Origin: Chiloscyllium plagiosum | Taxonomy: Eukaryota | Length of the DNA: 64,000 nucleotides | Assembly: GCF_004010195.1 (NCBI RefSeq) | Contig: NC_057718.1 | Span: 896,298-960,297 of the forward strand | Direction: 5' to 3' | Part shown: in pieces, positions 15,389-59,260 of the stretch | Layout of the letters: the number at the start of each line of letters is the position of its first letter | Numbering within the stretch: position 1 is the first letter of the stretch | Program-made: the position numbers and the translations under genes | Notes under the pieces: generated by a model | Told to the model about the DNA's origin: nothing | The model's database searches: none | Seen by the model: only the letters and a program-made list of their open reading frames with translations

Positions 15389-17355
15389 GGAGAAAATGAG
15401 GGCTGCAGATGCTGGAGATCAGAGTTAAAAAGTGTGGCACTGGAAAAGCACAGGCAGCATCTGAGGAGCAGGAGAGTCCACATTTCGAGCATAAGCATTT
15501 TGTCAGGAATGTGGGGCTGGCTGAAGGGGGCTGAGAGATAAATGGGAGGGGAATGGGGTGGCGGGAAGGTAACTGGGAATGCGATAGGTGGATGAAGGTG
15601 AGAGGTGATGGTGATCGGTCAGAGAGGAGGGTGGAGTGGACAGGTGGGAAGGAAGATGGGCAGGTGGGACAGTTCAAGAGGGTAGTGCCGAGTTGGAGGG
15701 TCAGATCTGAGATAAGGTGGGGGAGGGGAAATGAGGAAGCTAGTGAAATCAACACTGATTCCATGGGAGCTGAAGGGCCGCAAGGTGGAAGATGAGGTGT
15801 TCTTCCTCCAGTTGTCGGATCGCTAGGATTTAGCAGTGGAGGACCTCGGGTCTTGCATGTCCTTGGTGGAGTGGGAGGGGGAGTTGAAGTGTTCAGCCAC
15901 AGGGTGGTGGGGTTGTTTGTTGCGTGTTGTGACGAGGCTGCTCATTCCGGCAAGGTGATGTCATCCTTGATTTTTGCTTGAGGTTGTAAACGGCCCAGAC
16001 TCTGAAAAGTTTGAGAGTTTGGATAGATTTTAGGGCCCATTTTTTACAGCTAACAGATACTGCCTCAGACAGAAGACTTTCAAGTTAAAAAAACTTGTGT
16101 AATGAAAGGGGAGTGGCCAGTTCAGCAGCAGCATGTTTGAAGGAAGGCTGTCGGAAGCAATCCAGCCTGATTCTCGCTCTTGCTCACTCTAACTTCAAGT
16201 GTGTAAGTCTTTGTTGGTTTTTACTTTTTGTGCCAAGGGGTGTTTATTGGGATTGTTGCATGTATTTTGGAATAGCATTAAGTCCGAATAGCCTCAGTGT
16301 TCGGATAGGATAAGTTTTCTATTTTCTGGTCTATGTGTTTCATACTGTAATTTTGTGAATAAATTCTGTTTTGTTTAAAAACTAAGTCAGCTGACCAGCT
16401 AATTCTCGGCAGGAAAATCCACTATACACTTAAGTAAATCAAATAGCAAAGCTAGGGTCTGGACTCTCAGTTTAAAATGTTTTGAGGGGTCGGGCCTGAT
16501 CCATAACAGTGTGTCCTGGCGATGTTCTCTGAAACATTCCGCAAGTTGACGTCCTGTCTCCCCAGTGTAGTTGATCAACTTCTCAAACACCTTTCACCCT
16601 GACCTCAATTTCACCTGGACCATCTTGAAAACACCTCCTTCTCTTTCCTGGACCTCCGCATTTCTATTTCTAGTGACTGACTCAACACGGGCATCTACTT
16701 CAAACCCACTGACTTCCGCAGCTATCTGGACTACACCATCCCCCCTCCCCCTTTCCAATCACAGCAAGGACACCTTTCACCACACAATCTCTGGATACAA
16801 CGCTTCATCCTTCGCCATTTCTGCCATCTACAGTCAGATCCCACCACCAGAGATATATTTCCCTCCCCACGCCTTTAAACATTCCGCAGAGACTATTCCC
16901 TCCGTGACTCCTTCATTAGGTCAACGCTCCCCCACCAACCCACCATTCCCTTGCCACCGCAACAAGTGTAAAACCTGCCTACCCCCCTCCTCCCATCTCT
17001 ATTCAAGGCTCCAAAGGATCCTTCCATATCCAGCCGAGATTTTCTGTACCTCCAAACACCTCATCACTGTACCTCCAAACACCTCAATGTGGTCAACTCT
17101 ATGTTGAGGACACAGGACACCAATTTGTGGAATGCTTCAGAGAACATCTCTGGGGCACACGCACTAAACTAACCCATCGCCCTGTGACCGAACACTTGCA
17201 TTCCCAGCTGCCTTGCACCCCCAGCCATTTATCTCTCAGCCCCCTTGTGGTTCTCCCACATTCCTGATGAAAAGCTTTTGCTTGAAATGTTGACTCTCCT
17301 GCTCCTCAGATGCTGTCTGACTGGCTGTGCTTTTCCAGCACCACATTTTTTGATT
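15389..17355. mobile_element. Penelope-like element with an inverted 5' segment
   Basis: 15389-16570 is the terminus plus GIY-YIG end on minus (YTGETGRQLAECFREH). 16571-17355 is RT end, GIY-YIG and terminus on plus. Interrupted by a solo LTR. Confidence 0.78.
15928..16508. mobile_element. Solo LTR (second family) nested in the PLE
   Basis: tgtgac...ataaca termini; TSD gtgt at 15924-15927 and 16509-16512; contains aataaa. Confidence 0.82.
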
Positions 17356-27184: not shown

Positions 27185-29128
27185 AGACTAAGAATAAGTT
27201 GAAGTTCTAAATTGGAGAAAGGCCAATTTTGATGGTATTAGACAAGAACTTTGAAAAGCTGATTGGGGTCAGATGTTCGCAGGTAAAGGGACGTCTGGAA
27301 AATGGGAAGCCTTCAGAAATGAGATAAAGAAAGTCCAAAGACAGTACATTCCTGTTAGGGTGAAAGGAAAGGTTGGTAGATATTGGGAATGCTGGATGAT
27401 TAAAGAAATTGAGGATTTGGTTAAGAAAAAGAAGGAAGCATATGTCAGATACAGAAAGGATAGATCGAGTGAATACTTAGAGTATAAAGGCAGTAGGAGT
27501 ATACTAAAGAGGGAAATCAGGAGGGCAAAAAGGGGACATGAGATAGCTTTGGCAAATAGAATTAAGGAGAATCCAAAGGGTTTTTACAAATACATTAAGG
27601 ACTAAAGGATAACTAGGGAGAGAATAGGGCCCCTCAAACATCAGCAAGGAGCTGATTTGTGTGGAGTCGCAGAAAATGGAGGAGATACTAAATGAGTATT
27701 TTGCATCAGTATTTACTGTGGAAAAGGACATGGAAGATATAGAATGTAGGGAAATAGATGGTGACATCTTGGGAAAATGTCCATAGTACAGAGGAGGAAG
27801 CGCTGGATGTCTTGAAAAGCATGAAAGTCAATAAGTCACCAGGACCTGATCAGGTGTACCCTACAACTCTGTGGGAAGCTAGAGAAGTGATTGCTGGGCC
27901 CCAATCTAAGATATCTGTATCATCGATAGTCATAGGTGAGGTGCCAGAAGACTGGAAATTGGTTAATGTGGTGCCACTGTTTAATAAGGGTGGTAAGGAC
28001 AAGCCAGGGAACTATAGACCAGTGAGCCTGTGTTGGGCGGAAGATGTGATCTATATGGACTTCAGTAAGGCGTTCGACAAGGTACCCAATGGGAGACTGA
28101 TTAGCGAGGTTCGATCTCATGAAATACAGGGGGAACTAGCCATTTGGCTACAGAGCTGGCTCAAAGGTAGAAGACAGAGTTGTGGTGGTGAAAGGTTGTT
28201 TTTCAGACTGGAGGCCTGTGACCAGTGGAGTGCCACAAGGATCGGTGCTGGGTCCTCTACTTTTCATCATTTATATAAATAATTTGGATGTGAGCATAAG
28301 AGGTACAGTTAGTAAGTTTGCAGATGACACCAAAATTGGAGATGTAGTTGACAGCGAAGAGGGTTACCTCAGATTACAACAGGATCTGGACCAGATGGGC
28401 CAATGGGCTGAGAAGTGGCAGATGGAGTTNNNNNNNNNNNNNNNNNNNNNNNNNNNNNNNNNNNNNNNNNNNNNNNNNNNNNNNNNNNNNNNNNNNNNNN
28501 NNNNNNNNNNNNNNNNNNNNNNNNNNNNNNNNNNNNNNNNNNNNNNNNNNNNNNNNNNNNNNNNNNNNNNNNNNNNNNNNNNNNNNNNNNNNNNNNNNNN
28601 NNNNNNNNNNNNNNNNNNNNNNNNNNNNNNNNNNNNNNNNNNNNNNNNNNNNNNNNNNNNNNNNNNNNNNNNNNNNNNNNNNNNNNNNNNNNNNNNNNNN
28701 NNNNNNNNNNNNNNNNNNNNNNNNNNNNNNNNNNNNNNNNNNNNNNNNNNNNNNNNNNNNNNNNNNNNNNNNNNNNNNNNNNNNNNNNNNNNNNNNNNNN
28801 NNNNNNNNNNNNNNNNNNNNNNNNNNNNNNNNNNNNNNNNNNNNNNNNNNNNNNNNNNNNNNNNNNNNNNNNNNNNNNNNNNNNNNNNNNNNGCTCTGAT
28901 CTCCAGCATCTGCAGTCCTCACTTTCTCCAGCAGAGGAAGTGGTAGAAGCTGGTACAATTGCAACATTTAAAAGGCATTTGGATGGGTATATGAATAGGA
29001 AGGGTTTGGAGGGATATGGGCCAGGTGCTGGCTGGTGGGACTAGATGGGGTTGGGATATCTGGTCGGCATGGAGGGGTTGGACCGAAGGGTTGTTTCCAT
29101 GCTGTACATCTCCATGACTCTATGACTC
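27185..29128 (+). mobile_element. CR1 LINE ORF2 fragment spanning an assembly gap (28430-28891)
   Basis: YMDFSKAFDKVP, SGVPQGSVLGPLLF and SKFADDTK; (ctatgact) tail near 29120. Confidence 0.85.
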
Positions 29129-32734: not shown

Positions 32735-35700
32735 TGTAGGGAGGTACCCCCGCTGAAGGGAGGTAAACACGCTGTAGGGAGGTACCCCCGCTGAAGGGAG
32801 GTACCCCCGCTGAAGGGAGGTAAACACGCTGTAGGGAGGTACCCCCGCTGAAGGGAGGTAAACCCGCTGTAGGGAGGTACCCCCGCTGAAGGGAGGTACT
32901 CCTGCTGAAGGGAGGTAAACACGCTGTAGGGAGGTACCCCCGCTGAAGGGAGGTAAACCCGCTGTAGGGAGGTAAACACGCTGTAGGGAGGTATTCCCGC
33001 TGAAGGGAGGTAAACACGCTGTAGGGAGGTACCCCCGCTGAAGGGAGGTAAACACGCTGTAGGGAGGTACCCCCGCTGAAGGGAGGTAAACACGCTGTAG
33101 GGAGGTATTCCCGCTGAAGGGAGGTAAACCCGCTGTAGGGAGGTAAACCCGCTGTAGGGAGGTACTCCCGCTGTAGGGAGGTAAACCCGCGCTAGGGACG
33201 TACTGCTGCTGTAGGGAGGTAAACCCGCGCTAGGGACGTACTGCTGCTGAAGGGAGGTACTCCCGCTGAAGGGAGGTAAACCCGCGCTAGGGAGGTACTG
33301 CTGCTGAAGGGAGGTACTCCCGCTGAAGGGAGGTAAACCCGCGCTAGGGACGTACTGCTGCTGAAGGGAGGTACTCCCGCTGAAGGGAGGTAAACCCGCG
33401 CTAGGGAGGTACTCCCGCTGTAGGGAGGTACTCCCGCTGAAGGGAGGTAAACCCGCGCTAGGGAGGTACTGCTGCTGTAGGGAGGTACTCCCGCTGAAGG
33501 GAGGTAAACCCGCGCTAGGGAGGTACTCCCGCTGTAGGGAGGTACTCCCGCTGAAGGGAGGTAAACCCGCGCTACGAGGTACTCCCGCTGTAGGGAGGTA
33601 CTCCCGCTGAAGGGAGGTAAACCCGCGCTAGGGACGTACTGCTGCTGTAGGGAGGTACTCCCGCTGAAGGGAGGTAAACCCGCGCTAGGGAGGTACTCCC
33701 GCTGTAGGGAGGTACTCCCGCTGAAGGGAGGTAAACCCGCGCTAGGGACGTACTGCTGCTGTAGGGAGGTACTCCCGCTGAAGGGAGGTAAACCCGCGCT
33801 AGGGAGGTACTCCCGCTGTAGGGAGGTACTCCTGCTGTAGGGAGGTACACCCGCTGAAGGGAGGTACTCCTGGTGAAGGGAGGTAAACCCGCGCTAGGGA
33901 GGTACTCCTGCTGTAGGGAGGTAAACCCGCGCTAGGGAGATACTCCTGCTGAAGGGAGGTACTCCCGCTGAAGGGAGATACTCCTGCTGAAGGGAGGTAA
34001 ACCCGCGCGAGGGAGGTACTCCCGCTGTAGGGAGGTAAACCCACGCTAGGGAGATACTCCCGCTGAAGGGAGGTACTCCCGCTGAAGAGAGGTACTCCCG
34101 CTGAAGAGAGGTACTCCCGCTGAAGGGAGGTACTCCCGCTGAAGGGAGGTAAACCCGCACTAGGGAGGTACTCCCGCTGTAGGGAGGTAAACCCGCACTA
34201 GGGAGGTACTCCCTCTGAGGGGAGGTAAACCCGCGCTAGGGAGATACTCCCTCTGAGGGGAGGTACTCCCGCTGTATGGAGGTACTCCCACTGTAGGGAG
34301 GAAAACCCGCGCTAGGGAGGTACTCCCGCTGAAGGGAGGTAAACCTGCGCTAGGGAGATACTCCCGCTGTATGGAGGTACTCCTGCTGAAGGGAGGTAAA
34401 CCCGCGCGAGGGAGGTACTCCCGCTGAAGTGAGGTAAACCCGCGCTAGGGAGGTACTCCCGCTGAAGGGAGGTAAACCCACGCTAGGGAGGTACTCCCGC
34501 TGTAGGGAGGTAAACCCGCGCTAGGGAGGTACTCCCGCTGTAGGGAGGTAAACCCACGCTTGGGAGGTACTCCCGCTGTAGGGAGGTAAACCCGCGCTAG
34601 GGAGGTAAACCCGCGCTAGGGAGGTACTCCCGCTGTAGGGAGGTACTACCGCTGTAGGGAGGTAATCCTGCTGAAGGGAGGTACTCCCGCTGTAGGGACG
34701 TACTCCCGCTGTAGGAACGTACTCCCGCTGTAGGGACGTACTCCCACTGTAGGGACGTACTCCCGCTGTAGAGAGGTAATCCTGCTGAAGGGAGGTAATC
34801 CTGCTGAAGGGAGGTACTCCCGCTGTAGGGACGTTCTCCCGCTGTAGGGACGTACTCCCGCTGTAGGGACGTACTCCCGCTGTAGGGAGGTACTCCCGCT
34901 GTAGGGAGGTAAACCCGCGCTAGGGAGGTACTCCCGCTGTAGGGAGGTAAACCTGCGCTAGGGAGGTACTCCTGGTCTGTTCAGGTTTCAGCTATCTTTC
35001 CTTGCAGAGAAAAGACCTATCCATATTAAACTTTAATGACTGTATGGAGGTACTCCCGCTGAAGGGAGGTAAACCCGCGCTAGGGAGGTACTCCTGGTCT
35101 GTTCAGGTTTCAGCTATCTTTCCTTGCAGAGAAAAGACCTATCCATATTAAACTTTAATGACTGTATGGAGGTACTCCTGCTGAAGGGAGGTAAACCAGC
35201 TGTAGGGAGGTACTCCCGCTGAAGGGAGGTAAACCCGCGCTAGGGAGGTAAACCCCGCGCTAGGGAGGTAAACCCGCGCTAGGGAGGTACTCCTGCTGAA
35301 GGGAGGTACTCCCGCTGAAGGGAGGTAAACCCGCTGTAGGGAGGTACTCCCGCTGAAGGGAGGTACTCCTGCTGTAGGGAGGTAAACCCGCGCTAGGGAG
35401 GTACTCCTGCTGAAGGGAGGTACTCCCGCTGAAGGGAGGTAAACCCGCGCTAGGGAGGTAAACCCGCGCTAGGGAGGTACTCCCGCTGAAGGGAGGTACT
35501 CCCGCTGAAGGGCGGTAAACCCGCGCTAGGGAGGTACTCCCGCTGTAGGGAGGTAAACCCGCGCTAGGGACGTAAACCCGCGCTAGTGAGGTACTCCCGC
35601 TGAAGGGAGGTAAACCCGCGCTAGGGAGGTACTCCCGCTGTAGGGACGTACACCCGCTGAAGGGAGGTACTCCCGCTGTAGGGAGGTAAACCTGCGCTAG

Positions 35701-37098
35701 GGAGGTACTCCCACTGAAGGGAGGTACTCCCGCTGTAGGGAGGTAAACCTGCGCTAGGGAGGTACTCCCGCTGAAGGGAGGTACTCCCGCTATAGGGAGG
35801 TAAACCCGCGCTAGGGAGGTACTCCTGGTGAAGGGAGGTACTCCCGCTGTAGGGACGTACTCCCGCTGTAGGGAGGTACTCCTGCTGTAGGGAGGTACTC
35901 CCGCTGTAGGGAGGTAAACCCGCGCTAGGGAGGTACTCCTGCTGTAGGGAGGTAAACCCGCGCTAGAGAGATACTCCGGCTGAAGGGAGGTTCCCCCACT
36001 GTAGGTAGGTAAACCCGCGCTAGGGAGGTACTCTCGCTGTAGGGAGGTAAACCTGCGCTAGGGAGATACTCCTGCTGAAGGGAGGTACTCCCGCTGTAGG
36101 GAGGTACTCCTGCTGAAGGGAGGTAAACCCGCGCGAGGGAGGTACTCCCGCTGTAGGGAGGTAAACTCACGCTAGGGAGATACTCCCGCTAAAGGGAGGT
36201 ACTCCCACTGTATGGAGGTACTCCCGCTGAAGGGAGGTACTCCCGCTAAAGGGAGGTACTCCTGCTGAAGGGAGGTACTCCCGCTGAAGGGAGGTAAACC
36301 CGCGCTAGGGAGGTACTCCCGCTGTAGGGAGGAAAACCCGCTGAAAGGAGGTAAACCCGCGCTAGGGACGTACTGCTGCTGTAGGGAGGAAAACCCGCGC
36401 TAGGGAGGTACTCCCGCTGTAGGGAGGAAAACCCGCGCTAGGGAGGTACTCCCGCTGAAAGGAGGTAAACCTGCGCTTGGGAGGTACTCCCGCTGAAGGG
36501 AGGTAAACCCGCGCTAGGGAGGTACTCCCGCTGAAGGGAGGTAAACCCGCGCTAGGGAGGTACTCCCGCTGTTGGAGGTACTCCCGCTGAAGGGAGGTAA
36601 ACCCGCTGAAAGGAGGTAAACCTGCGCTTGGGAGGTACTCCCGCTGAAGGGAGGTAAACCCGCGCTAGGGACGTACTGCTGCTGTAGGGAGGTACTCCCG
36701 CTGTAGGGAGGTACTCCTGCTGAAGGGAGGTACTCCCGCTGTAGGGAGGTACTACCGCTGTAGGGACGTACTCCCACTGTAGGGACGTACTCCCGCTGTA
36801 GGGAGGTACTACCGCTGAAGGGAGGTAATCCTGCTGAAGGGAGGTACTCCCGCTGTAGGGACGTACTCCTGCTGTAGGGACGTACTCCCACTGTAGGGAC
36901 GTACTCCCGCTGTAGGGAGGTACTACCGCTGAAGGGAGGTAATCCTGCTGAAGGGAGGTACTCCCGCTGTAGGGACGTACTCCCGCTGTAGGGACGTACT
37001 CCCACTGTAGGGAGGTAATCCTGCTGAAGGGAGGTAATCCTGCTGAAGGGAGGTACTCCCGCTGTAGGGAGGTACTCCCGCTGAAGGGAGGTAATCCT
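32735..37098. repeat. 19-bp minisatellite, about 4.4 kb (gctg[a/t]agggaggtactccc and gcgctagggaggtaaaccc variants)
   Basis: More than 200 tandem units with interspersed variants and two internal 68-bp interruptions. Confidence 0.97.
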
Positions 37099-38720: not shown

Positions 38721-39237
38721 GTTTTAAAGGACAGTGATAATGCTGCTTTCTGTCCACAGTTCATGCTATACTTGGTGTATTTCTCCAGCATTTTCCATTT
38801 TTCTGTTGCAGATTTCCAGCATCCACAGTCCTTTGTTTTATAATTGAGTCAGTAATCTGCTTTGAAAAAGTACAACAATGCCTTCCTCCACACCTGCAAG
38901 TTCCCCTCCAAGCCATTCACCATCTAAATTAGAAATATATCGTCATTTCTTCACTGTCATTGGGTCAAAATCCTGGAACTCCCTCCCTAATGACATGGTG
39001 AGGCTGTCTACAACACATGCAGCGATTCAAGAAGGCAGCTCACTACCATCCTCTCAAGGGCATCTATGGATGGGCAATAAATGCTGGCCAGCCAATGACA
39101 CCCATTTCACATGAGTGAATTTAAAAAAGAAATTATTTGGTTTTTAAAACAGTCCTTTTCCCATTTCAGTCCACACGGTCTTTATACTGGCTGTATCATG
39201 TTTCTGGTTCTGATACCTTGTTTTAATTCCTCCACAG

Positions 39238-39385
39238 TCCTGAGAAATGGAACAGCAGTGAGTGGGTTTTACCAATTCTCTCTGAGTGATGGTACAGTCC
39301 TGGGAGCTCAGACCAAGTGTAAGCTGTGTTACCCTGCCAACGTGGACACATCACCCATCATCATAAGCATGTACAGCATATACAG
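39238..39385 (+). CDS. NCOA1: NCOA1-like internal exon (PAS-B second half)
   Basis: ccacag| acceptor and AG|gtgggc donor; 148 nt, phase 1-2. Encodes VLRNGTAVSGFYQFSLSDGTVLGAQTKCKLCYP...SIYR. Confidence 0.92.
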
Positions 39386-40300
39386 GTGGGCAGTGTGTGC
39401 TTGCCACCTTTCCTGCGCAGGTTTGTGTTTCAGGCAAAGGACAAGTTGAGGAGATACCTCAGAGCTAAGCAGAATGGGCAGTGGTGGGGGCGGGAGGTGG
39501 GGGGATGCATCTGTACCTTCTAGGTCTGAGGTTCTTTAGGGACTTAATTGGATTAATGTGTGGAAGAATGGCCATCTTGTGGTCAACAGGAAAAATGTTG
39601 AAGAGCAAACAAGATGTACTTAATTGATCTTTGCAACTATTTACAGGTTGTAAGATTCTCTTTACATTATCGTAATGACTTGGGAAGACCCATCCGAAGG
39701 TCTCTTCTCCCATAAAATCCTGTTTTAGTCTCTCACTAAGTCCTTGTGACATCGTCACAGTGGGCAGTGCTTACCGCACACAATCCCTTTAACCCTTTCA
39801 GACCCACATGCAAACAGTGAACATGAGAGTGAGGGAAGGATAGGTGACAGGGGATTGTGGGAATAGACTTGTATTTATTTTAAAAATTGTTGATGGGATA
39901 GAAAGCAGATGACAAATAAATGGGAATGGACAGAACGCAGATAAGTAGGGTTCCTTGTAGGAAAATGTGAAGTCATTCACTTTAGTCAGACAGGATAAAA
40001 CAAGATACATTCTAAACAGTGAGAGATTGGAAACAGTGGAAGTCGAAAGAGTTGGCCGGATGCACTGATCATTACAATGTAATGAACAAATACCGACAAA
40101 TAATCAAAAAGGCTTATAGAATGCTGGTCATTTTGTTTCAAGGACTGAAATACAAGGGGGGTATGTTTCATCCATACAAAGTCCTGGTTAGACCACACCT
40201 GGAGGTAGTCAGCACACCTCGGGAAGGAGATCTGAGAATAGAGGGTGGTCATGTACATTTACCAGTGTGAAAATTAATAACTAGGATTTTCCAATGCTCT

Positions 40301-40456: not shown

Positions 40457-40798
40457 TTTTCCAATGTTCTGTCTGTTTTTCTCTTCTTGTAACCCTGTCT
40501 TCGACAAACTTTTGTTCATGCTTTATCTCTTGCTTTGGCTCACTGCCTCTCTGATGTACCCTATGCCCTCTCTTGCATGCTCCAGTCTCTGCCTAACTTT
40601 GTTCTCACTGCAGCGCTCTCTCTCTTTCTCTCTCTGCTGCGCTCTTGCCTTCTACCCAACTTGCACTTGCTGCACTGTCATTCTCTGCGTTATCTCTCTC
40701 TCTCTCTTTCACCCCTTGCCAACACTCCTTTCTTATCGTTTGGTTTGAGATGGGATGCATTTGCAGTGCAATTGTTGACAATATGCTTCTCTCTCTAG

Positions 40799-41951
40799 GA
40801 ATCAGAACCTGGTCACTTCTCAGCAAAACCTCGTCGCTGGGTCTTCATTAACACAGGCAGAGAACAGCACTGTCAAGCCAACGCTGGCATCTCCCTCCCA
40901 CAGCACAAACAGCAGCATTTCTGAACTTGATTTCAGCTTGTCACCTGGCTCCCGTCTAGGCATCAATGGTGCCAGCAATCCCTCGAACCTGGGCTTCTTG
41001 TCCGGAGTGCAAGTGGGAGCTTCTGGTCCTGTGAATCAGGACTCATCAATCTCTCAGAGCCCCAAACACAGCAGTTCAGGGATTACCCCACCAGTCCCAG
41101 GCTTTATAACGCCCAGAGCACTGGGCAATTCTAGGCACTCTTTTCCCCCGAGTGCAGCACATGTCCCATCAACAGGTAGGCACCCCTACCCTAACTCCAG
41201 TTGCAATGCCTACCCTTGCCCTTTCCCCAGTTCCAACTCTAAACCAAATCCCAACTCCAATCTTCCCCTTCAGTCTCTCCAGGTACTGAGTGAGGGCAAC
41301 AGGGTGCCTGTAAGTTTCCCTGGCACTTCAAGTGCACAGAGTGCACCAGTGTATCAATCTTTGCCTGCTGTGACAAAAGTGGCAGCACTGGACTCCAAGA
41401 CTGTGCTCCCAGGGAAAGTTGGGGACAACCTGAGCTTTGAACACTTGGGGAACAGCTCAGCACCTGCATGTGTGGGTGAGAGGCCAACTGACACTGACAG
41501 CAAAACTCTCCAGGACGACAATGTAAAACTGGTGGAACTGTTGACCAGCAGCCAGGAACAAACCAGACCATGTGAGCTAGACACAGGGAGCAAGGGTAAC
41601 CTCTCTCTTCCCACAACAAGTGCTCCGTGCCACACGTTACACACTAGCTCCTTGACAGAACGCCACAAAATCCTGCACCGCCTTCTGCAGCAGGAGGGAT
41701 CTCCCTCTGACATCCCAGCAATGCTGCTTCCTCAAGATAGGAAGGAGGTTGCTCGGTGTGGTCAGGAGGGGGAAGGGCCCAGGAGAAAGGATGTGAAGGA
41801 TCACCAGTTGCTGCGTTACCTGCTGGACAAGGATGAGCCCACAACTCCCGGCCTCAGTCTGGACGATGTGACACTGAAGTCGGAGCGCCCCAGTGGTTTC
41901 GGAGACTGTGCACTTGGCCTCAAGAAAGGCCCTCAGGACAAGCTGGAGCAG
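40799..41951 (+). CDS. NCOA1: NCOA1-like large exon with nuclear receptor interaction domain (three LxxLL boxes)
   Basis: ctctag| acceptor and CAG|gtgagc donor; 1153 nt open, phase 2-0. S/P-rich, with LVELL (41529-41543), HKILHRLLQ (LHRLL 41673-41687) and KDHQLLRYLLDKDE (LRYLL 41811-41825). Confidence 0.95.
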
Positions 41952-42741
41952 GTGAGCTGAGGGATGTGGGAGAGCGGGGCTGGTGGTGGGACTAGGGTGA
42001 CTCTGGGACGTGTGGTCTGGTGATAGGTTTGCTGTGAGAGTGAAGGGCATGTGAAGAGCTGCAATTGGAGTTGAGGTTTGTGGTTTTACAGAGAGGAGGT
42101 GGTTACATAAGAGGTTAAAGCAAGAGCCAGTGACTTGAGGGCAGTTATCTGGAAAATAGCAGAGCAAACAAGTAAGGTTCTGTATTCAGGAGACATAGTG
42201 GTTGAATGAACAGGCAGGATGGCTATGATTTAGTGCAGCATATGAATGATTCATTTTGGTAGGAAGATTGAGGAGAGAAAATATAAAATATAGGAGCAGA
42301 ATTAAGCCATTTTGCCCATTGAGTCTATTCCACCATTTAGTCGTGGGCTGATTTTTTTTTCTTGCCTTCTCCCTTGCTAATCAAGAATGTGCTAACTGTC
42401 GCAGTTTAAAATAGCTGTAGGAGCAGAGATCTGAGGGTACATGGTCACAAATTTTTGAATGTGGCAAAACAAATAGAGAAAGCTGTTAGAAGCATGTGGT
42501 ATCCTTGCCTTTATAAACAGAGGCATAGAGCAAAAAGCAAGGAAGTTATGATAACCCTTTTCAAGACACTGATTAGGCCACAGCTGAAGGGTTGTGCCCA
42601 GGAACATAGATTGGACCTTCAAGAGCTATCATAGGAACAATGATTAAATGACTACCCGGTGAGCTATTTGATTCAAGGGTAAGGCTAATAGAATGCTGGC
42701 CTTGATCTCAGGTGGCCTGGAAGACATAGAGAAAGGAGTTA

Positions 42742-49689: not shown

Positions 49690-51365
49690 TTTATTTATTC
49701 ATTTTTGTGGGATGTGGGCATTGCTGGCTGGTCAGCATTTATTACCTGTCCCTAGTTGCCCTTGAGAATGTGGGGGTGAGCTGCCGTCTTAAACCACTGC
49801 AGTCCATGTGCTGTGTGTTGACCCACAATGCCATTAGGGAGGGACTTCCAGAATTTTGACACAGTGACAGTGAAGGAACGACGATATATTTCCAAGTCAG
49901 GATGGTGAGTGGCTTGAAGGGAACTTGCAGGGGGTGGTGTTCCCATGTACCTGCTGCCCTTGTCCTTCTAGGTGGAAGTGGTTGTGGGTTTGGAAGGTGC
50001 TGTCTGAGGAACTTTGTATTTCTGCAGTGTATCTTATAGATAGTACACACTGCTGTTATTGACAGTCAGTCATAGAAGGAGTGGATGTTTGTGGATGCAG
50101 TGCTATTCAAGCGGTTGTTTTGTCCTGCATGGTGTCAAGCTTCCTGGGTGTTGTTGGAGCTGCACCCATCCAGGCAAGTGGGGAGTATTCCATCACACTC
50201 CTGACTTGTGCCTTGTAGATGGTGGACAGGCTTTCAGGAACAAGGAGGTCAGTTACTCATTGCAGTGTCCCTAGTCTCTGACTTGCTGTAGGAGCCACTG
50301 TGTTTATATGGTGAGTCCAGTTCAGTTTTTGGACTCCCAGGGTGTTGATAGTCGGGGATCGAGTGATGATAATACCATTGAATGTCAAGGGACAGTGGTT
50401 AGATTGTCTTTTATTGGTGATGGTCATTATCTGACATTTGTATGGCACAAATGTTACTTGCCACTTGTCAGCCCAAGCCTGGATATTACCCAGATCTTGT
50501 TGCATTTGAACATGGACTGCCTCAGTATCTGAGAAGTTGTGAATGGTACTGAATATCGTGCAACCATCGGTGAACAATCCCATTTTTGACCTTAAGATAG
50601 AGGGAAGGTCATTGATGAAACAGCTGAAGATGGTTGGGCCTAGGACACTCCCCAGTGGAACTCCTGCAGAGATGTCCTGGAGCTGAGATGACTGACCTTC
50701 AACAACCACAGCCATCTTCTTATGTGTCAGGTATGACTCTAACCAGTGGAAAGTTTGCCCCCTGATACCCATTGATTCCAGTTTAACTAGGGCTCCTCAG
50801 TCGAATGCAGCCTTGATGTCAAGGGCTGTCCCTCTCCCCTGCCCTCCCCTCTGGAATTCAGCTCTTTTGTCCATGTTTGACCCAAGGCTGTAATGAGGTC
50901 AGGAGCTGAGTGGCCCTGGGGGAACCCAAACTGGGCGTCACTGAGCAGGTTATTGCTGAGCAGGTGCTGCTTGATGGTACTGTTGGTGACACCTTCCATG
51001 ACTTTATTGATGAACGAGAGTAGACTTATGGGGCAGTAATTGGCCAGGTTGGATTTGTCCTGCTTTTTATGTACTGGGCATACCTGGGCAATTTTTCACA
51101 TTGTTGGGTAGATGCCAGTGTTGTAGCTGTACTGGAACAGCTTAGTAGGGGAGTGGCAAGTTCTGGAGCACAAGTCTTCAGTACTATTGCCAGAACATTA
51201 TCAGAGCCCATTGCCTTTGCAGTATCCCAGTGCTTCCAACTGTTTCTTGATCTTACGGGGAGTGAATCGAATTGGCTGAAGACTGGTGTCTGTGTTGCTG
51301 GGGACCACTGGAGGAGGCTGACACCGATCATCCACTTGGCACTGATGACTGAAGATTGTTGCGAA
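49690..51365 (-). mobile_element. CR1/L2-group LINE RT and 3' end
   Basis: AGVPLGSVLGPTIFSCFINDLPS and QAWADKWQVTF; tail ends in aataaataaataaa on minus. Confidence 0.85.
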
Positions 51366-52501
51366 AGTGGGAAGAGACTGAACAAGAGTGGGGAAAAAGG
51401 AAGAGTCAAGATGCAGAGAAATAAAATCACTGGGGCATGTACAGGTTGAAACAATGGGTCTGCCAGAGCTGTCCTGGTTTTGGATTTTGGGAACAAGGTA
51501 GTGGGGTGTGCAGGCCTGGGGTAACTGTGAGGTGGGAAGCTGTGAAGGGAAGATTGCGAAAGGTAGATGAGGTCAGTGACAGTCCTGGTAACAGCTGTTT
51601 TGTGGAACACCTCCACTCTGCGCACAAGAATGATCCTGACCTTCCCATTGCTTGCCATTTCAGTAAATCATCTTGCTGCCATGGTAACAAATCCAAGCTG
51701 AGCCAGCTACAGGTGTTGCAAGGAAGCTGAATGTAAACTGTAGAAATACCACCTCATTTTCTCCTTCAGCATTTTACAGCTTCTAGGATTCAACATTAAA
51801 CAATTTCAGAGCATGACCTCTGTCCAACAATTGATTACATCCCCACCCAGCCATCCCTGACATTATCTAATTTGTGACTTGTTGACTTTGCTCTCAGCAG
51901 AGCTGACCTGTTTTCTCCTTTTCTAACCTAGCTCCAATGATGCTGTCAGACCTGCTAAGTTTTTCCAGCACTTTGTTTTCATTTCCCAAACTTGAAGTAT
52001 TGACTCCTGTCCTTTTAATTGCTGGAGGAATGAGCTGAGTGAAGCATGAAAAGCTACATTTCCTTCAGTAGAGATTAACTTCAAGGAGTACCTTACAAAC
52101 TTTCTACAGCTCAGAAACAGGCCTTCTGGGCCAACATATCAGTGCTTCTGTTGTACTCCTCATGAGCCATGTCCCACCTTATTTCATTAAAGGTTAAGTT
52201 GCCATAGTCTTCTCATTAGAGAGAGAGGGGGGGGATCTGGTGGTGGTTTAACCTGAGGATCACCATGCCCCGAGAGAGGAGAGGTTGAGAAGGAAGGTCC
52301 TTCATGGTAACCTCATTAAACCTATCAGCAAAGGCTTATATTCCTTTCTCCTCCATTGTAGAGGCATAATGAAATCAAATAGTTTGTAAGAGCTTTTTGC
52401 TTGCTGAAGTTACAGTCTTTAGAAGTGTACGAAACACTGAGGGGTTTGCTGGCTGAACTAATGGAATGAGATGCTCTTTAAACCCCTGCCACCTTCTTCA
52501 G

Positions 52502-52673
52502 TTCACAGAGCTTGATCACCTGTTACCCACTTTGGAGGAAGCAGCCCAGTTACAAAGCAACTGCCAGTCCAGTGCAGCTAATAACGGCCTGACGTCGAGA
52601 GGTGGGAAGAGGGAGCAGCTTTTGGACCCACTTCACTCCAACAGCGTCACCAGGACACTTCAGCGCCTCAAGG
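52502..52673 (+). CDS. NCOA1: NCOA1-like internal exon
   Basis: cttcag| acceptor and G|gtatgt donor; 172 nt, phase 0-1. FTELDHLLPTLEEAAQL resembles NCOA1 FDQLLPTLEKAAQL. Confidence 0.88.
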
Positions 52674-52702
52674 GTATGTCACCAATGCTGTTCTCCTGCT
52701 AA

Positions 52703-52931
52703 GGAGAAAGTGAGGTCTGCAGATGCTGGAGATCAAAGTTGAAACTTTATTGCTGGAACAGCACAGCAGGTCAGGCAGCATCCAGGGAACAGGAGATTCG
52801 ACGTTTCGGGCACAGGCCCTTCCTCAGGAATGAGTCATTCCTGAGGAAGGGCCTGTGCCCGAAACGTCGAATCTCCTGTTCCCTGGATGCTGCCTGACCT
52901 GCTGTGCTGTTCCAGCAATAAAGTTTCAACA
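52703..52931. mobile_element. Palindromic PLE-derived element with 15-bp TSD
   Basis: TSD ctgttctcctgctaa at 52688-52702 and 52932-52946; perfect inverted arms 52738-52833 and 52835-52930. Confidence 0.92.
52837..52872 (+). ncRNA. Putative minimal type I hammerhead ribozyme (mirror copy on minus at 52796-52831)
   Basis: attc-CTGAGGA-a-GGGC(ctgt)GCCC-GAAAC-GTC-gaat: stem I attc/gaat, stem II, palindromic ACGT stem III and a GUC cleavage triplet. Confidence 0.7.
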
Positions 52932-52967
52932 CTGTTCTCCTGCTAACTCAAATCCTGTAAGTTTGAT

Positions 52968-54161
52968 GAGAAAGTGAGGACTGCAGATGCTGGAGATCAG
53001 AGCTGAAAATGTGTTGCTGGAAAAGCGCAGCAGGTCAGGCAGCATCCAAGGAGCAGGAGAATCGACATTTTGGGCATAAGCCCTTCTTCAGGAATGAGGA
53101 AAGTGTGTCCAGCAGGCTAAGATAAAAGGTAGGGAGGAGGGACTTGGGGGAGGGGCGTTGGAAATGCGATAGGTGGAAGGAGGTCAAGGTGAGGGTGATA
53201 GGCCAGAGTGGGGGTAGGGGCGCAGAGGTCAGGACTGTGGCTGATGTTCTGATTATGTTCTGTTAATCTTTGTTCATTCATACCATAGGTTCATACGAAG
53301 TTTCATAATCGACAGGCACATGCTCCTGGCAGTGACACCTCCTGTCTTAGCTTCTCATACGATGGCAACACCCTGGCCTCACGTGGTGGTATGTGTCTGT
53401 TTCTGTACATATAAATATGTGCCTCGTAAGTACTGCGCAAGTGTTGCACCTCCTGCGGTTGCATGGGAAGGTGCCGGGAGTGGAGGTTGGGTCGGTGGGG
53501 GGTGTGGGTCTGACAAGGGAGTCGCGGAGGGAGTGGTCTCTACGGACAGCTGATAGGGGAGGGGAGGGAAATATATTCTTGGTGCTGGGGTCTGTTTGGA
53601 GGTGGCGGTAGTGACGGCGGATGATGCGCTGTACATGGAGATTGGTGGGGTGGTAGGTGAGGGCCAGTGGGGTTCTGTCCTGGTGGCGATTGGAGGGGCG
53701 GGGTTCAAGGGCGGAGGAGCGGGAAGTGGAGGAGATGCGGTGGAGAGCATCGTCGATCACGTCTGGGGGGAAATTGCGGTCTTTGAAGAAGGAGGCCATC
53801 TGGGCTGTTCAGTATTGGAAGTGGTCCTCTTGGGAGCAGATGCGGCGGAGACGAAGGAATTGGGAATATGGGATGGCGTTTTTATGGGGGCAGGGTGGGA
53901 GGAGGTGTAGTCTAGGTAGCTGTGGGAGTCGGTCGGTTTATAGTAAATGTCCGTGTTGATTCGGTCACCCGAGATAGAAATGGAGAGGTCTAGGAAGGGG
54001 AGGGAGGAGTCTGAGACGGTCCAGGTGAATTTGAGGTCGGGGTGGAAGGTGTTGGTAAAGTGGATGAACTGTTCAACCTCCTCGTGGGAGCACGAGGCAG
54101 CGCCGATACAGTCATCGATGTAGCGGAGGAAAAGGTGGGGGGGTGGTGCCAGTTTAGCTGC
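52968..54161 (-). mobile_element. 5'-truncated PLE carrying a foreign segment of about 200 bp
   Basis: TSD gtttgat at 52961-52967 and 54162-54168; FLRYIDDCIG and DIYYKPTDSHSYLDY; terminus at 52968-53234; GIY-YIG region missing and replaced by about 53235-53434. Confidence 0.88.
53289..53388 (+). pseudogene. WDR70: Orphan WDR70-like exon copy with splice sites, embedded in a Penelope-like element
   Basis: T-rich tract and ccatag| acceptor; G|gtatgt donor; 100 nt. Reads VHTKFHNRQAHAPGSDTSCLSFSYDGNTLASRGG, close to recalled vertebrate WDR70 (VHPKFHYKQAHDSGTDTSCVTFSYDGNVLASRGG). No other WDR70 exons seen. Confidence 0.8.
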
Positions 54162-54384
54162 GTTTGATCCCCACACTCCTGGCACCATCATAACTTTCTC
54201 AATCCCCTCCCTTGCCTTTCAAATCTCTTTGTCTCAATGGGGGAAATATTTTGGATTAGTCTTACTGGAGACAAATGTGGCTTGTTTTAATTGCCTCTGT
54301 TTTTATACTTTTGTGTCTAAAAACAAGTGTTGTCTATGATCGATTTGCTCCTTTGTTAAACTCAGTTTCTCTCCTTGTTGGAAG

Positions 54385-54493
54385 GTTTACCAGAGCTGGA
54401 CTCGGGACTCAGGGGCCAGCAGCTCTCCATGCCGAGGACAGAAGGCCAGCAGTCCTGGAGCAACACAAGCAGGACAGGCAGCAATGAGGATGG
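54385..54493 (+). CDS. NCOA1: NCOA1-like internal exon
   Basis: Pyrimidine tract then gaag| acceptor; GG|gtgagc donor; 109 nt, phase 1-2, bridging both neighbours in frame. Encodes GLPELDSGLRGQQLSMPRTEGQQSWSNTSRTGSNEDG (LPEL start as in NCOA1). Confidence 0.78.
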
Positions 54494-55559
54494 GTGAGCA
54501 GAGATGGTCAACCTGGAACTATGGTCAGGGAGCACCAATTGTGACGGTTAGAGCAGGGAAGCTGAAACGGTAAACTGAGGGACAGGATGATTTGTAATGC
54601 TGTGGTTTTGGCAAAAGTGAATGACTGAATATTTCATGTGCTTTTTGGATGATAAGGAAGTACTTTAATTGTTGTTAAATTTCCCAGAGACTGAATGGTC
54701 CTGAGCTCTTTCCTTGCTCTGTCTGATTACTGATTTGAACTTGGATAACTGTAGCAGTGGAAGCTAAACTTGAAGTCCCTGAGCTGAGGAGAGATAAATT
54801 AACTGGGGACTCTGGTAAGAAATGTTGGCTTAGCTTGTGATGTCAGCATTTCCACAAACAAATAAAAAAAATCTCCTGTTTATTCTTCAGAGATGTGTTT
54901 GATCATCTGCTGTAAAGCTCCCTATACGCACACTCCTGCTAATGGAGTTTGTGGGTACTGTGACAGCGTGTCAGGTTCTCACTGAGTGTCCAAGCAAGTG
55001 GGGCAGACAATGGCCTAGTGGTATTATCACTAGATCATTCATCCAGATAATGTTCTGGGGAGCAAACGCAGAAATTGCTGGAGAAACACAGAAGTTCATG
55101 CAGCATCTCTGGAGGGAAAACAGTTAGTGTACTGAGTGCAGTGACTCTTCTTTGAGATGGTCACTGGATTCAAATCTCATCATGGCAGATGGCTGAGTTG
55201 AATTCAATTTTTAAAAAAATCTGGAAACTGCTGTTCTTATCTTGTCTGGCCTAGATGTGATTCCAGACCCACAACAACATGGTTGACTATTAATTGTTCT
55301 CTGGGCAATTAGGGAGTGGCAGGACATGTCTGGCCAACAACACCCAAATCTGGTGAATGACTAAAGAAAACTGACTGTGGTTTATTGTGATTGACTTGTT
55401 GGGATTCCTGACCTTGACTATTTTAAGGCTCTTCAGCTTCGGTGACAGTGAGAACCTGGCAATACCTGGCTGTGATGTTACCTTGTTGACCCCTTTTGTC
55501 AAGTAGTGCTGCATGTTGCAGTGTAATGGCACTAATAGGCACTCCTGCTGCTTTCTCAG

Positions 55560-55728
55560 CTCTGGCTTCAGCACCCAAATGGACGAGCTGCTGTCTCCTC
55601 CAACAAGTACTGAAGGACGGAATGATGAGAAAGCACTCCTTGACCAACTTGTGTCATTCCTCAGCGCCAAAGATGAAGTGGAGCTCGTGGAAATTGACAA
55701 GGCTCTTGGAATTGACAAACTCGTTCAG
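55560..55728 (+). CDS. NCOA1: NCOA1-like exon, CBP/p300-interaction (AD1) region; GC donor
   Basis: ttctcag| acceptor. Encodes STQMDELLSPPTSTEGRNDEKALLDQLVSFLSAKDEVELVEIDKALGIDKLVQ, followed by CAG|gcaagt. Confidence 0.93.
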
Positions 55729-55790
55729 GCAAGTCAACCTCTCAGATAAAATCAAAATGCTAGAGAAACTCAGCTGGTCTGGCAGCATCT

Positions 55791-56742
55791 ACATAGAACA
55801 TAGAACAATACAGCACAGAACAGGCCCTTCGGCCCACGATGTTGTGCCGAACATTTGTCCTAGCTTAAGCACCCATCCATGTACCTATCCAATTGCCGCT
55901 TAAAGGTCACCAATGATTCTGACTCTGCCACTCCCACAGGCAACGCATTCCATGCCCCCACCACTCTCTGGGTAAAGAACCCACCCCTGACATCTCCCCT
56001 ATACCTTCCACCCTTCACCTTAAATTTATGTCCCCTTGTAACACTCTGTTGTACCCAGGGAAAAAGTTTCTGACTGTCTACTCTATCTATTCCTCTGATC
56101 ATCTTATAAACCTCGATCAAGTCACCCCTCATCCTTCGCCGTTCCAACAAGAAAAGGCCGAGAACTCTCAACCTAGCCTCGTACGACTTCCTCTCCATTC
56201 CAGGCAACATCCTGGTAAATCTTCTCTGCACCCCCTCCAAAGCTTCCACATCTTTCCTAAAGTGAACTAAGAACCCTACCGTTAGCCCTGTATTCCGCAT
56301 TCTTATTTGTTCTTCCAACCTCACACTTGGCAGGGTTGAACTCCATCTGCCACTCCTCAGCCCAGCTCGCATCATATCTAAGTCGCTTTGCAGCCGACAA
56401 CAGCCCTCCTTACTATCCACAACTCCACCAATCTTCGTATCGTCTGCAAATTTACTGACCCAGCCTTCGACTCCCTCTTCCAAGTCATTAATAAAAATTA
56501 CAAACAGCAGAGGACCCAGAACTGATTCCTGCGGAACTCCACTTGTAACTGGGCTCCAGGCTGAATATTTACCATCTACCACCACTCTCTGACTTCGACC
56601 GGTTAGCCAGTTCTCTATCCAACTGGCCAAATTTCCCTCTATCCCATGCCTCCTGACTTTCCGCATAAGCCTACCATGGGGAACCTTATCAAATGCCTTA
56701 CTAAAATCCATGTACACATCTGTACACATGTACACTAAAATC
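55791..56742 (-). mobile_element. CR1 LINE 3' part with internal deletion
   Basis: ORF 55860-56735 has DFSKAFDKVPH and SKFADDTK; TSD catct at 55786-55790 and 56743-56747. Confidence 0.9.
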
Positions 56743-57049
56743 CATCTGTAGAAAGAGAAACAGAATTAACATTTCTTTAGAATCCTGTGTATGACCTGTC
56801 CTGGGAGTGTTCGATGGTAAACAGTGTAGAGGGAGTTTTACTCTATATCCAACTGCATGCTATACCTGTCTTAGAACAAGAACATGGAACAGGCCTTTCA
56901 GCCCACCATGACTACGCCAAAAGTGATGCCATTTCTGAACTAATCCCATCTGCCTGTATATGGTTCATATCCTTCTATTCCCTGCCTGTTCATGTTAAAA
57001 AGCCTCTTAAATGTTGCTATCCTGTCTGCTTCTGCCACCTATCATCCAG

Positions 57050-57876
57050 ACAGTCCTCCACTGCCCCACCTCCATCCCCGTTCCACTGCTCTAAACCCTC
57101 ACCCACAACAAATGCAATAAGGCCAGAGTCCCTCTTGTCCTCACCTACCACCCCACCAGTCTCTGCATTCAACGCATCATCCTTAAACACTTCTGCCAAC
57201 TCCAACTAGACCCTACCACCAAGATCATCTTCCCCTCTCCTGCCTTCCGCAAAGATCGTTCCCTTCTACAGTCCTTGGTTTGCACCACCCTCCCCACCAA
57301 CGCCCCTGAACCCCCAGGTACCTTCCTCTGCGACCGGAAAATATGCAAAACATGGTGGCACACCAGCCCCTCACCTCCATCAGGGCCCCAAACAGTCCTT
57401 CCAGGTGAGAGAGAGGTTCACTTGCCTCTCCTCCAACTTAGTTTATTATATCAGGTGCTCCCAACGTGGTCTTTTCTACGTCGGGGAGACCGAACGTAAA
57501 CCTAGGGAACGGTCCGTCGAGCATCACATCCAGGCCTGCAGGAGCCAACCAGCCCTCCCAGTCACTGCCCATTTCGATTCCCTTTCCCATTCCCTTTACG
57601 ACATGACTGTCCTTGGCCTCCTCCATTGCCACAACGAACCAAACCGCAAATTGGAGGAACAACACCTCATCTTTCGTCTGTGCAGCCTACAGCCCAGAGG
57701 ACTCAACATTTGAGTTCTCCCATTTCAAATAACCTCCCTTCCCTTCCCCGACTCCCTTCCCAGCCCCTCCCCCTCCCTTCCATTTCACCCTGCCACCTAC
57801 CAGATCCATTCCTTCCATTGACCAACCACGTCGTACCCTCTACTTGCCTCTACGTATCCCCACCTCACCACCCTGC
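57050..57876 (+). mobile_element. PLE fragment with GIY-YIG, running into a gap (57877-58703)
   Basis: NLVYYIRCSQRGLFYVGETERK and RKLEEQHLIFRL. Confidence 0.85.
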
Positions 57877-58703
57877 NNNNNNNNNNNNNNNNNNNNNNNN
57901 NNNNNNNNNNNNNNNNNNNNNNNNNNNNNNNNNNNNNNNNNNNNNNNNNNNNNNNNNNNNNNNNNNNNNNNNNNNNNNNNNNNNNNNNNNNNNNNNNNNN
58001 NNNNNNNNNNNNNNNNNNNNNNNNNNNNNNNNNNNNNNNNNNNNNNNNNNNNNNNNNNNNNNNNNNNNNNNNNNNNNNNNNNNNNNNNNNNNNNNNNNNN
58101 NNNNNNNNNNNNNNNNNNNNNNNNNNNNNNNNNNNNNNNNNNNNNNNNNNNNNNNNNNNNNNNNNNNNNNNNNNNNNNNNNNNNNNNNNNNNNNNNNNNN
58201 NNNNNNNNNNNNNNNNNNNNNNNNNNNNNNNNNNNNNNNNNNNNNNNNNNNNNNNNNNNNNNNNNNNNNNNNNNNNNNNNNNNNNNNNNNNNNNNNNNNN
58301 NNNNNNNNNNNNNNNNNNNNNNNNNNNNNNNNNNNNNNNNNNNNNNNNNNNNNNNNNNNNNNNNNNNNNNNNNNNNNNNNNNNNNNNNNNNNNNNNNNNN
58401 NNNNNNNNNNNNNNNNNNNNNNNNNNNNNNNNNNNNNNNNNNNNNNNNNNNNNNNNNNNNNNNNNNNNNNNNNNNNNNNNNNNNNNNNNNNNNNNNNNNN
58501 NNNNNNNNNNNNNNNNNNNNNNNNNNNNNNNNNNNNNNNNNNNNNNNNNNNNNNNNNNNNNNNNNNNNNNNNNNNNNNNNNNNNNNNNNNNNNNNNNNNN
58601 NNNNNNNNNNNNNNNNNNNNNNNNNNNNNNNNNNNNNNNNNNNNNNNNNNNNNNNNNNNNNNNNNNNNNNNNNNNNNNNNNNNNNNNNNNNNNNNNNNNN
58701 NNN

Positions 58704-59260
58704 GCCTGCCTTGCTGTGTTCTCCCAGCCTCCTGATGCTGCCTGCCTTGCTGTGTCCCTGTCCCTCCTGATGCTGCCTGCCTTGCTGTGTCCCTGTCCCT
58801 CCTGATGCTGCCTGCCTTGCTGTGTCCCTGTCCCTCCTGATGCTGCCTGCCTTGCTGTGTCCCTGTCCCTCCTGATGCTGCCTGCCTTGCTGTGTCCCTG
58901 TCCCTCCTGATGCTGCCTGCCTTGCTGTGTCCCTGTCCCTCCTGATGCTGCCTGCCTTGCTGTGTCCCTGTCCCTCCTGATGCTGCCTGCCTTGCTGTGT
59001 CCCTGTCCCTCCTGATGCTGCCTGCCTTGCTGTGTCCCTGTCCCTCCTGATGCTGCCTGCCTTGCTGTGTCCCTGTCCCTCCTGATGCTGCCTGCCTTGC
59101 TGTGTCCCTGTCCCTCCTGATGCTGCCTGCCTTGCTGTGTCCCTGTCCCTCCTGATGCTGCCTGCCTTGCTGTGTCCCTGTCCCTCCTGATGCTGCCTGC
59201 CTTGCTGTGTCCCTGTCCCTCCTGATGCTGCCTGCCTTGCTGTGTTCTCCCAGCCTCCTG
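58704..59260. repeat. 35-bp tandem repeat (cctgatgctgcctgccttgctgtgtccctgtccct)
   Basis: 14 apparently identical units at 58731-59220 plus partial flanking units. Confidence 0.95.

Follow-up and report, generated by a model that had tools for sequence, protein, structure and literature searches.

Exons can be shuffled between genes by LINE-1 3' transduction and by the capture of gene fragments in Pack-MULEs or Helitrons. In the rearrangements known as FoSTeS and MMBIR, a stretch of a few hundred bases is copied from a remote template, on which a 3' end has primed through short homology, before synthesis switches back, and this leaves a deletion together with a templated insertion in either orientation. 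The human templated sequence insertions of class 2 (TSI or TSIP; Onozawa and Aplan) measure 73-414 bp, with a median of 191 bp; their donors are reported to be distant loci, introns included, and their junctions to show microhomology and microdeletion (PMC5110952). Intron-containing host genes are reported to have been captured between the terminal repeats of Penelope elements in the rotifer Adineta vaga (PMC3846280).

The locus analysed here lies in an intron of NCOA1 in the shark Chiloscyllium plagiosum, where a Penelope-like element (PLE) is interrupted by a complete exon of another gene, WDR70, with both of its splice sites and the adjoining edges of its introns. All positions are those of the window, i.e. 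the whole stretch of 64,000 nucleotides (64 kb) that was analysed, and the features of the intron are collected in Table 1. Proteins of Chiloscyllium, Hemiscyllium and Stegostoma gave the best matches to the window.

Results

The NCOA1 intron and its two insertions

The host gene was identified by a 393-aa open frame at 40779-41960, which matches the Pfam family SRC-1 and whose PDB matches are NCOA1/SRC-1 chains in 12 cases out of 12, and by a PAS_11 exon (Pfam) at 39099-39449. Contigs of four public runs (X1, X5, X9 and X15) were placed on 52300-54800 at a likeness of at least 90%. X1 comes from organism A, taken as the species of the window, whose flanks show 0 differences from it, and X9 from organism B, a sister species; X15 was taken as RNA-like, which is a guess, though one of its contigs carries a GT..AG joint. 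This contig (record 9), 2653 nt in length, covers 52499-52672 and continues directly at 54384, skipping the WDR70 pseudo-exon, which is in the sense orientation with respect to NCOA1 and sits in an NCOA1 intron of 1.7 kb. When both PLE-derived insertions and their duplications are subtracted from this intron (52674-54384), about 250 nt are left.

The insertion that lies apart from the WDR70 segment is a non-autonomous hairpin built of two PLE 3' tails; the main PLE is some 20 nt away. Its arms are at 52704-52834 and 52835-52943, and it has a 15-bp duplication of its own, CTGTTCTCCTGCTAA, at 52688-52702 and 52932-52946. The near-perfect palindrome that it forms could itself provoke breaks or fork stalling.

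Several other repeats were seen in the window. The NCOA1 intron upstream of the PAS-B exon holds a GC-rich minisatellite of 4.4 kb (32735-37097; unit of 38/57 nt, about 76-114 copies, 80% matches), which yields long spurious open frames on the minus strand. A further PLE copy, with a GIY-YIG frame (57210-57713), is followed by an N run (57877-58703) and, directly after it, by a 35-nt tandem array (58704-59245; 15.5 copies, 98% matches). Another N run (28430-28892) ends exactly at a PLE tail (28893-28928) that is identical to 52968-53003 at 36/36 positions.

Table 1. Features of the NCOA1 intron that carries the WDR70 exon copy, in window coordinates.
Feature	Position	Strand	Evidence
NCOA1 exon upstream of the element-bearing intron	52502-52673	plus	X15 record 9; acceptor cag 52499-52501, donor GT 52674-75
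NCOA1 intron, 1711 nt, GT..AG, almost wholly two PLE-derived insertions	52674-54384	plus	joint in X15 record 9 and sequence
Hairpin dimer of PLE 3' tails, separate insertion	52704-52931		self-BLAST to 52968-53098 in both orientations, 88% and 84% identity
7-bp target-site duplication gtttgat, left copy	52961-52967		read in sequence
PLE, 5'-truncated	52968-54161	minus	minus-strand ORFs and 7-bp target-site duplication
PLE 3' tail, non-coding end of the element	52968-53234 (267 nt)	minus	matches other PLE tails of the window
WDR70 intron 3' end, pyrimidine-rich, ends in AG	53235-53288 (54 nt)	plus	lies within the 213 nt matched by donor contigs
WDR70 exon copy, 100 nt, open	53289-53388	plus (strand of NCOA1; antisense to the PLE)	protein matches
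WDR70 intron 5' part, starts GTATGT	53389-53447 (59 nt)	plus	donor contigs match to 53447
Junction microhomology, 10-13 nt, GCGCAAGTGTTGC, common to the WDR70 donor and the CNTC-coding sequence of the PLE	53435-53447		donor contigs match as far as 53447; similarity to other PLE copies begins again at 53435-53438
PLE reverse transcriptase (RT), C-terminal part (YIDD motif onward), and CCHH-like linker	53448-54161	minus	5'-truncated, at least one frameshift; protein alignment
7-bp target-site duplication gtttgat, right copy	54162-54168		read in sequence
Next NCOA1 exon, start only	54385-54493	plus	RNA-like contig ends at 54493; AG at 54383-84

The foreign segment matches WDR70 donor contigs

The protein search for the exon made use of the 41-aa stop-to-stop frame of the window. 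The 33-aa translation of the exon aligns end to end with residues 365-397 of human WDR70 (E 2e-11), and the copy is identical at 34/34 amino acids to WDR70 of C. plagiosum, C. punctatum and Hemiscyllium ocellatum, with one residue different in Stegostoma. Its splice signals are an AG at 53287-88 and a GTATGT at 53389-94. The string GTAAGT, which resembles a consensus donor site, occurs at 53427-53432, within the stretch of WDR70 intron that follows the exon and 39 nt past the true GTATGT, and is probably fortuitous. No other WDR70 exon was found in the 64-kb window by tblastn, and self-BLAST showed 53235-53434 to be single-copy within it.

A contig of X1 (record 5, 1522 nt) matches 53235-53447 with its positions 1011-1223 and shows 0/213 differences; outside the match, its remaining 1010 nt and 299 nt are unlike the window and lie on nothing in the stretch. 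A contig of X9 (record 25, 1526 nt) matches within identical limits, with three differences (at 53276, 53280 and 53363). Two observations, the exon itself and the way in which the C. plagiosum WDR70 model P0002 reads through the same donor site and the same first 15 intron bases (GGMCLFL), make it most likely that these contigs represent the WDR70 gene itself. P0002 is a partial model; in the region of residues ~358-405, where it reads through, it also lacks the next exon (DDTIKTWDMRNF...), which is found in the C. punctatum and H. ocellatum proteins, so that the donor locus has probably been misannotated. The donor has been retained, as donor contigs were found in both species.

These matches bear out the core of the initial annotation, which had described a WDR70-like exon with intact splice sites and retained intron flanks, antisense to a PLE that has a 7-bp target-site duplication, lacks GIY-YIG and lies in an NCOA1 intron. 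It had also asked whether the intron flanks would align to the parent locus, as they do over 213 continuous nucleotides, and had deduced an unspliced template, either genomic DNA or pre-mRNA, in agreement with a donor match that covers the exon and both flanks. As for the limits of the segment, the start proposed at 53235 stands and the end at 53434 (about 200 bp) does not, since the donor match runs to 53447. The WDR70-derived stretch is thus 53235-53447, i.e. 213 bp made up of 54 nt of intron, the 100-nt exon and 59 nt of intron.

The host element is an old, deleted PLE copy

The first minus-strand ORF of the PLE contains ...FLRYIDDCIG...DIYYKPTDSHSYLDYTSSHP, and the ORF past the frameshift contains ...LTYHPTNL...GTFPCNRRRCNTC. 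Their counterparts in P0181, a relative of 795 aa in which RVT_1 occupies residues 324-466 and GIY-YIG residues 702-786, are residues 440-524 and 550-670; the RT fragment is 48% identical to P0181 over residues 440-524 (E 3e-24). RVT_1 is matched by the relatives P0181, P0132 and P0182, and a Pfam search with the RT fragment by itself returned zero matches. The truncated element begins within RT, at the YIDD region. It retains a linker of the CX2-5CxxC type (CNRRRCNTC, which aligns to P0181 661-670), and its PLE homology ends at the CNTC motif, at the point where the relatives run on into GIY-YIG. Seven relatives were aligned, among them five database proteins and one in-window copy; 5/7 go past C-x-x-C into the GIY-YIG region (...FTCTS.NVVY.I.C....Y.GET..RL..R..EH) and 2/7 end before it. 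GIY-YIG is absent from the copy at 52968-54161 and present in the relatives P0130, P0116, P0181 and P0182; the copy is a deleted one from an endonuclease-bearing PLE family.

Its tail is similar to PLE tails elsewhere in the window (15390-15630 and 26205-25959, by self-BLAST). The 3' terminus of the family was set independently at 52968, exactly where 781-1214 contigs per DNA run, and 203 in the RNA-like X15, depart from the window. The copy departs from the family letter at no fewer than 10 listed positions, at which the family letter was seen in 62-128 contigs per DNA run (X1, X5). Because it is frameshifted and carries these differences, we consider the copy to be old. An Rfam search of 50000-57000 found no hammerhead family at E <=0.1, its sole match being a chance, miRNA-like one to the palindrome; a string resembling CUGA..GAAAC..GUC was spotted by eye.

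Junctions of the patch

At the left junction (53234/53235), other PLE copies read ...GGTCAGGA followed by AGAAGAAAGA, and the window reads ...GGTCAGGA followed by CTGTGG. PLE homology stops at 53234 and the junction is blunt. At the right junction the donor and the element overlap in the microhomology listed in Table 1, which is the reverse complement of the C-N-T-C codons. A PLE copy in X15 (record 10) matches from 53435 and the older in-window copies from 53438; beyond 10 nt, the PLE origin of the motif comes from this one X15 contig, and the 13-mer was not found in the older PLE copies of the window with up to two mismatches. An overlap of 10-13 nt would be far beyond chance for a randomly captured fragment and would be expected if microhomology chose the template. 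At least 125 codons of the PLE ORF, together with some 3' non-coding sequence, are missing at the patch. The ends of 53235-53447 have neither poly(A) nor a target duplication of their own, on which grounds a LINE-type transduction or class 1 insertion was rejected.

Among the 31 contig pieces listed, from a set with 328,801 others, none has at least 31 letters on both sides of 53234/53235 or of 53447/53448; this speaks neither for nor against the junctions, and the evidence for both is the assembly itself. At the protein level, a near-length search with a 153-aa ORF returned 16 PLE fragments (best 74% identity), 0 of them with the junction, and an exact look-up of seven junction-spanning ORFs in a large predicted-protein collection gave 0/7. 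An assembly or library artefact, in which a piece of WDR70 was misplaced into a very abundant and hard-to-assemble repeat, would account for this lack of bridging contigs and proteins, and also for the identity of the patch to its donor. The gaps of the assembly, moreover, sit at PLE tails (N runs 28430-28892 and 57877-58703; single N at 21586). The donor-type contig of X1 is unbranched and continuous over all 213 bp, so that a second context for this sequence was not kept in the X1 contigs. Contigs show presence, not absence, and such a contig could reflect an artefact, a young insertion that is polymorphic, or the loss of the second context when the graph was cleaned beside a very abundant repeat. 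We nevertheless think an artefact unlikely. A blunt joint combined with a 13-nt overlap would be unlike the products of overlap or k-mer assemblers, and an internal 213-bp piece of a unique 1.5-kb contig would need two misjoins, both to the same PLE copy and at points collinear with each other. In addition, real repair events bear the signature seen here, namely a deletion with a templated insert and microhomology (PMC5110952).

Copy number and relative ages of the PLE and the patch

Within the exon, at 53363, X9 has a single contig, which is its donor contig, and the depth of X1 is that of its donor contig (record 5) alone, as against 62-128 contigs in the PLE parts. The segment is thus not part of a normal repeat consensus, which the initial annotation had named as a possible objection, and the two best-read runs, X1 and X9, show no sign of an amplified PLE/WDR70 chimera in their depth at this position. 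At 53276-80, X9 again has one contig and X1 shows a second contig; X5 has further depth at all three places (53276, 53280 and 53363). Over 53308-53391, in the exon, the depth of X5 is 915-1374 (1374 at 53363); the corresponding figures are 8-19 for X1, X9 and X15 and 34 for the neighbouring part of the intron. The X5 depth may possibly come from a contig running into a repeat, or from transcript-derived material.

A contig of X9 (record 31) starts 24 nt inside the truncated 5' end of the PLE and runs through the duplication into the flank. Since it crosses the PLE/flank junction, the sister species carries this truncated insertion too. The flanks of organisms A and B differ at 11/388 and 26/663 positions (X9 records 24 and 31), i.e. 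at 37/1051 or 3.5%. If the patch were as old as the PLE, about 3.7 changes would be expected in an unconstrained copy, and about 5.2 in the copy and the donor lineage together; 0/213 were seen. By our own arithmetic, the probability of 0 differences in a patch of PLE age is ~0.005-0.02, a figure that assumes equal neutral rates and no gene conversion, which from the donor would erase differences, and that covers only 213 nt. Because the patch is 0/213 from its donor while the PLE junction is common to a sister species at ~3.5% flank divergence, the patch arrived long after the PLE and is much younger than the frame in which it lies.

This difference in age weighs heavily on the possibility that WDR70 was captured during PLE retrotransposition, with the RT leaving its PLE template, copying ~200 nt of WDR70 and returning via the 13-nt homology, so that one event would have produced the PLE, the patch and the target-site duplication. 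Such an event would explain why the patch lies between collinear parts of one PLE within one duplication, and one blunt and one microhomology junction are what reverse transcriptases can make. A precedent also exists in the Adineta vaga PLEs, for which intron-containing host DNA between terminal repeats is reported (PMC3846280). Yet the sister species, at ~3.5% flank divergence, has this junction of element and flank as well, and the patch still shows 0/213 differences, with the low probability given above; the PLE copy is old, with its frameshift and 10 or more listed departures from the family letter; and no further copies of the chimera were seen at 53363, where X9 has a single contig and X1 donor-only depth. 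Capture in the course of retrotransposition is for these reasons highly improbable, and the PLE-associated exon shuffling suggested by the initial annotation, in the sense of capture by the element, is not supported by these findings.

That the window might hold the native WDR70 locus, flanked by two unrelated PLE fragments, has the perfect WDR70 identity of the exon as its sole point in favour and can be dismissed with near certainty: no other WDR70 exon lies in the 64 kb, NCOA1 exons stand on both sides on the same strand with an RNA-like contig spliced across, the donor contigs diverge at 53235 and 53447, and one 7-bp duplication frames both PLE parts.

Discussion

Our analysis suggests that the WDR70 segment is probably a microhomology-primed templated patch that was laid in the course of break or replication repair, in the manner of the human class 2 templated sequence insertions. 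The signature is not that of retrotransposition: the deletion, the distant intact donor, the combination of a microhomology and a blunt junction, and the lack of poly(A) and of an own duplication around the templated insert all point to a repair patch, and the preference of the initial annotation for break repair fits with them.

The donor and the extent of its match are established, as are the overlap at one junction, the blunt join on the left, the age difference between PLE and patch, and the missing GIY-YIG. On this basis we infer a break, an order of steps, a direction of priming and an RNA or DNA template, as follows. A break or stalled fork would have arisen in the GIY-YIG region of an old, 5'-truncated and already dead PLE within this short intron of NCOA1. 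A 3' end of DNA whose last bases were the PLE sequence ...GCAACACTTGCGC (minus strand) could then have annealed by 10-13 nt at a point 59 nt into the WDR70 intron, with the sense strand of WDR70 serving as the template, either as pre-mRNA or as single-stranded DNA, and the nascent strand becoming the minus strand of the window. Extension by ~200 nt would have copied the exon and then 54 nt of the intron upstream of it, after which the released end may have been sealed, by a blunt join, to the opposite side of the break in the PLE tail. The 125 or more codons of the PLE ORF and the 3' non-coding sequence that are missing would have been lost in this repair, and the PLE would simply have been the place of the event. 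A patch of ~200 nt copied in trans is long for fill-ins of the polymerase-theta type, which counts against this explanation.

An unspliced template fits pre-mRNA and DNA equally. The initial annotation had argued against a sense pre-mRNA template on the grounds that the exon is antisense to the PLE. We do not find this argument compelling, since the template would be the WDR70 sense strand if the microhomology was the priming site. A more specific and tentative version of the repair patch, for which we would claim a modest chance at best, is that the broken end was primed by 13 nt on WDR70 pre-mRNA and that ~200 nt were reverse-transcribed, which would have delivered a splice-competent sense exon without any transposon machinery, very recently and possibly as a variant that is still polymorphic.

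The effect of the patch on NCOA1 is likely nil or mildly harmful, because the 100-nt pseudo-exon would shift the reading frame and the sole RNA-like contig seen skips it. If the junctions are real, the locus provides a clean and datable vertebrate case of a repair patch that has moved an intact exon with both of its splice sites into an intron of another gene, a route to exon shuffling that is rarely caught before it decays. It also calls for caution, in that a foreign segment inside a retroelement has not always been captured by that element; here the PLE frame and its exon cargo differ in age.

Among the systems to which this locus can be compared, LINE-1 transduction, Pack-MULEs and Helitrons likewise deliver an exon of one gene into another. 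Unlike their products, however, the shark patch has no poly(A), no mobilisation driven by an element and none of the geometry of readthrough into flanking sequence. With FoSTeS/MMBIR it shares the outcome of a deletion and a templated insertion obtained via short homology. In that case the templates are DNA and often nearby, whereas the donor here is another gene and an RNA template is equally possible; in human, NCOA1 and WDR70 are on different chromosomes.

The captured genes reported from Adineta vaga resemble the shark locus in that host DNA with introns is enclosed by a PLE, and the PLE in turn by a target duplication. The captured rotifer DNA moves with its element, whereas the shark frame is older than its cargo and there is no sign that the chimera has been copied. 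We regard the WDR70 patch as a fresh instance of an already known kind of event, and PLE-mediated exon capture as unlikely.

Set beside the class 2 templated sequence insertions, as reported for human cells and genomes, the shark patch has a similar length of ~200 bp, a distant donor that has been kept intact, an unspliced template, microhomology at a junction, loss of recipient sequence, and neither poly(A) nor a duplication of its own. It departs from them in being found in a germline assembly of a shark and inside a retroelement, in the unusual length of its microhomology (10-13 nt) and in a recipient deletion of several hundred bases. It further differs in what was transferred, namely a complete exon with both splice sites, placed in the sense orientation in an intron of another gene.
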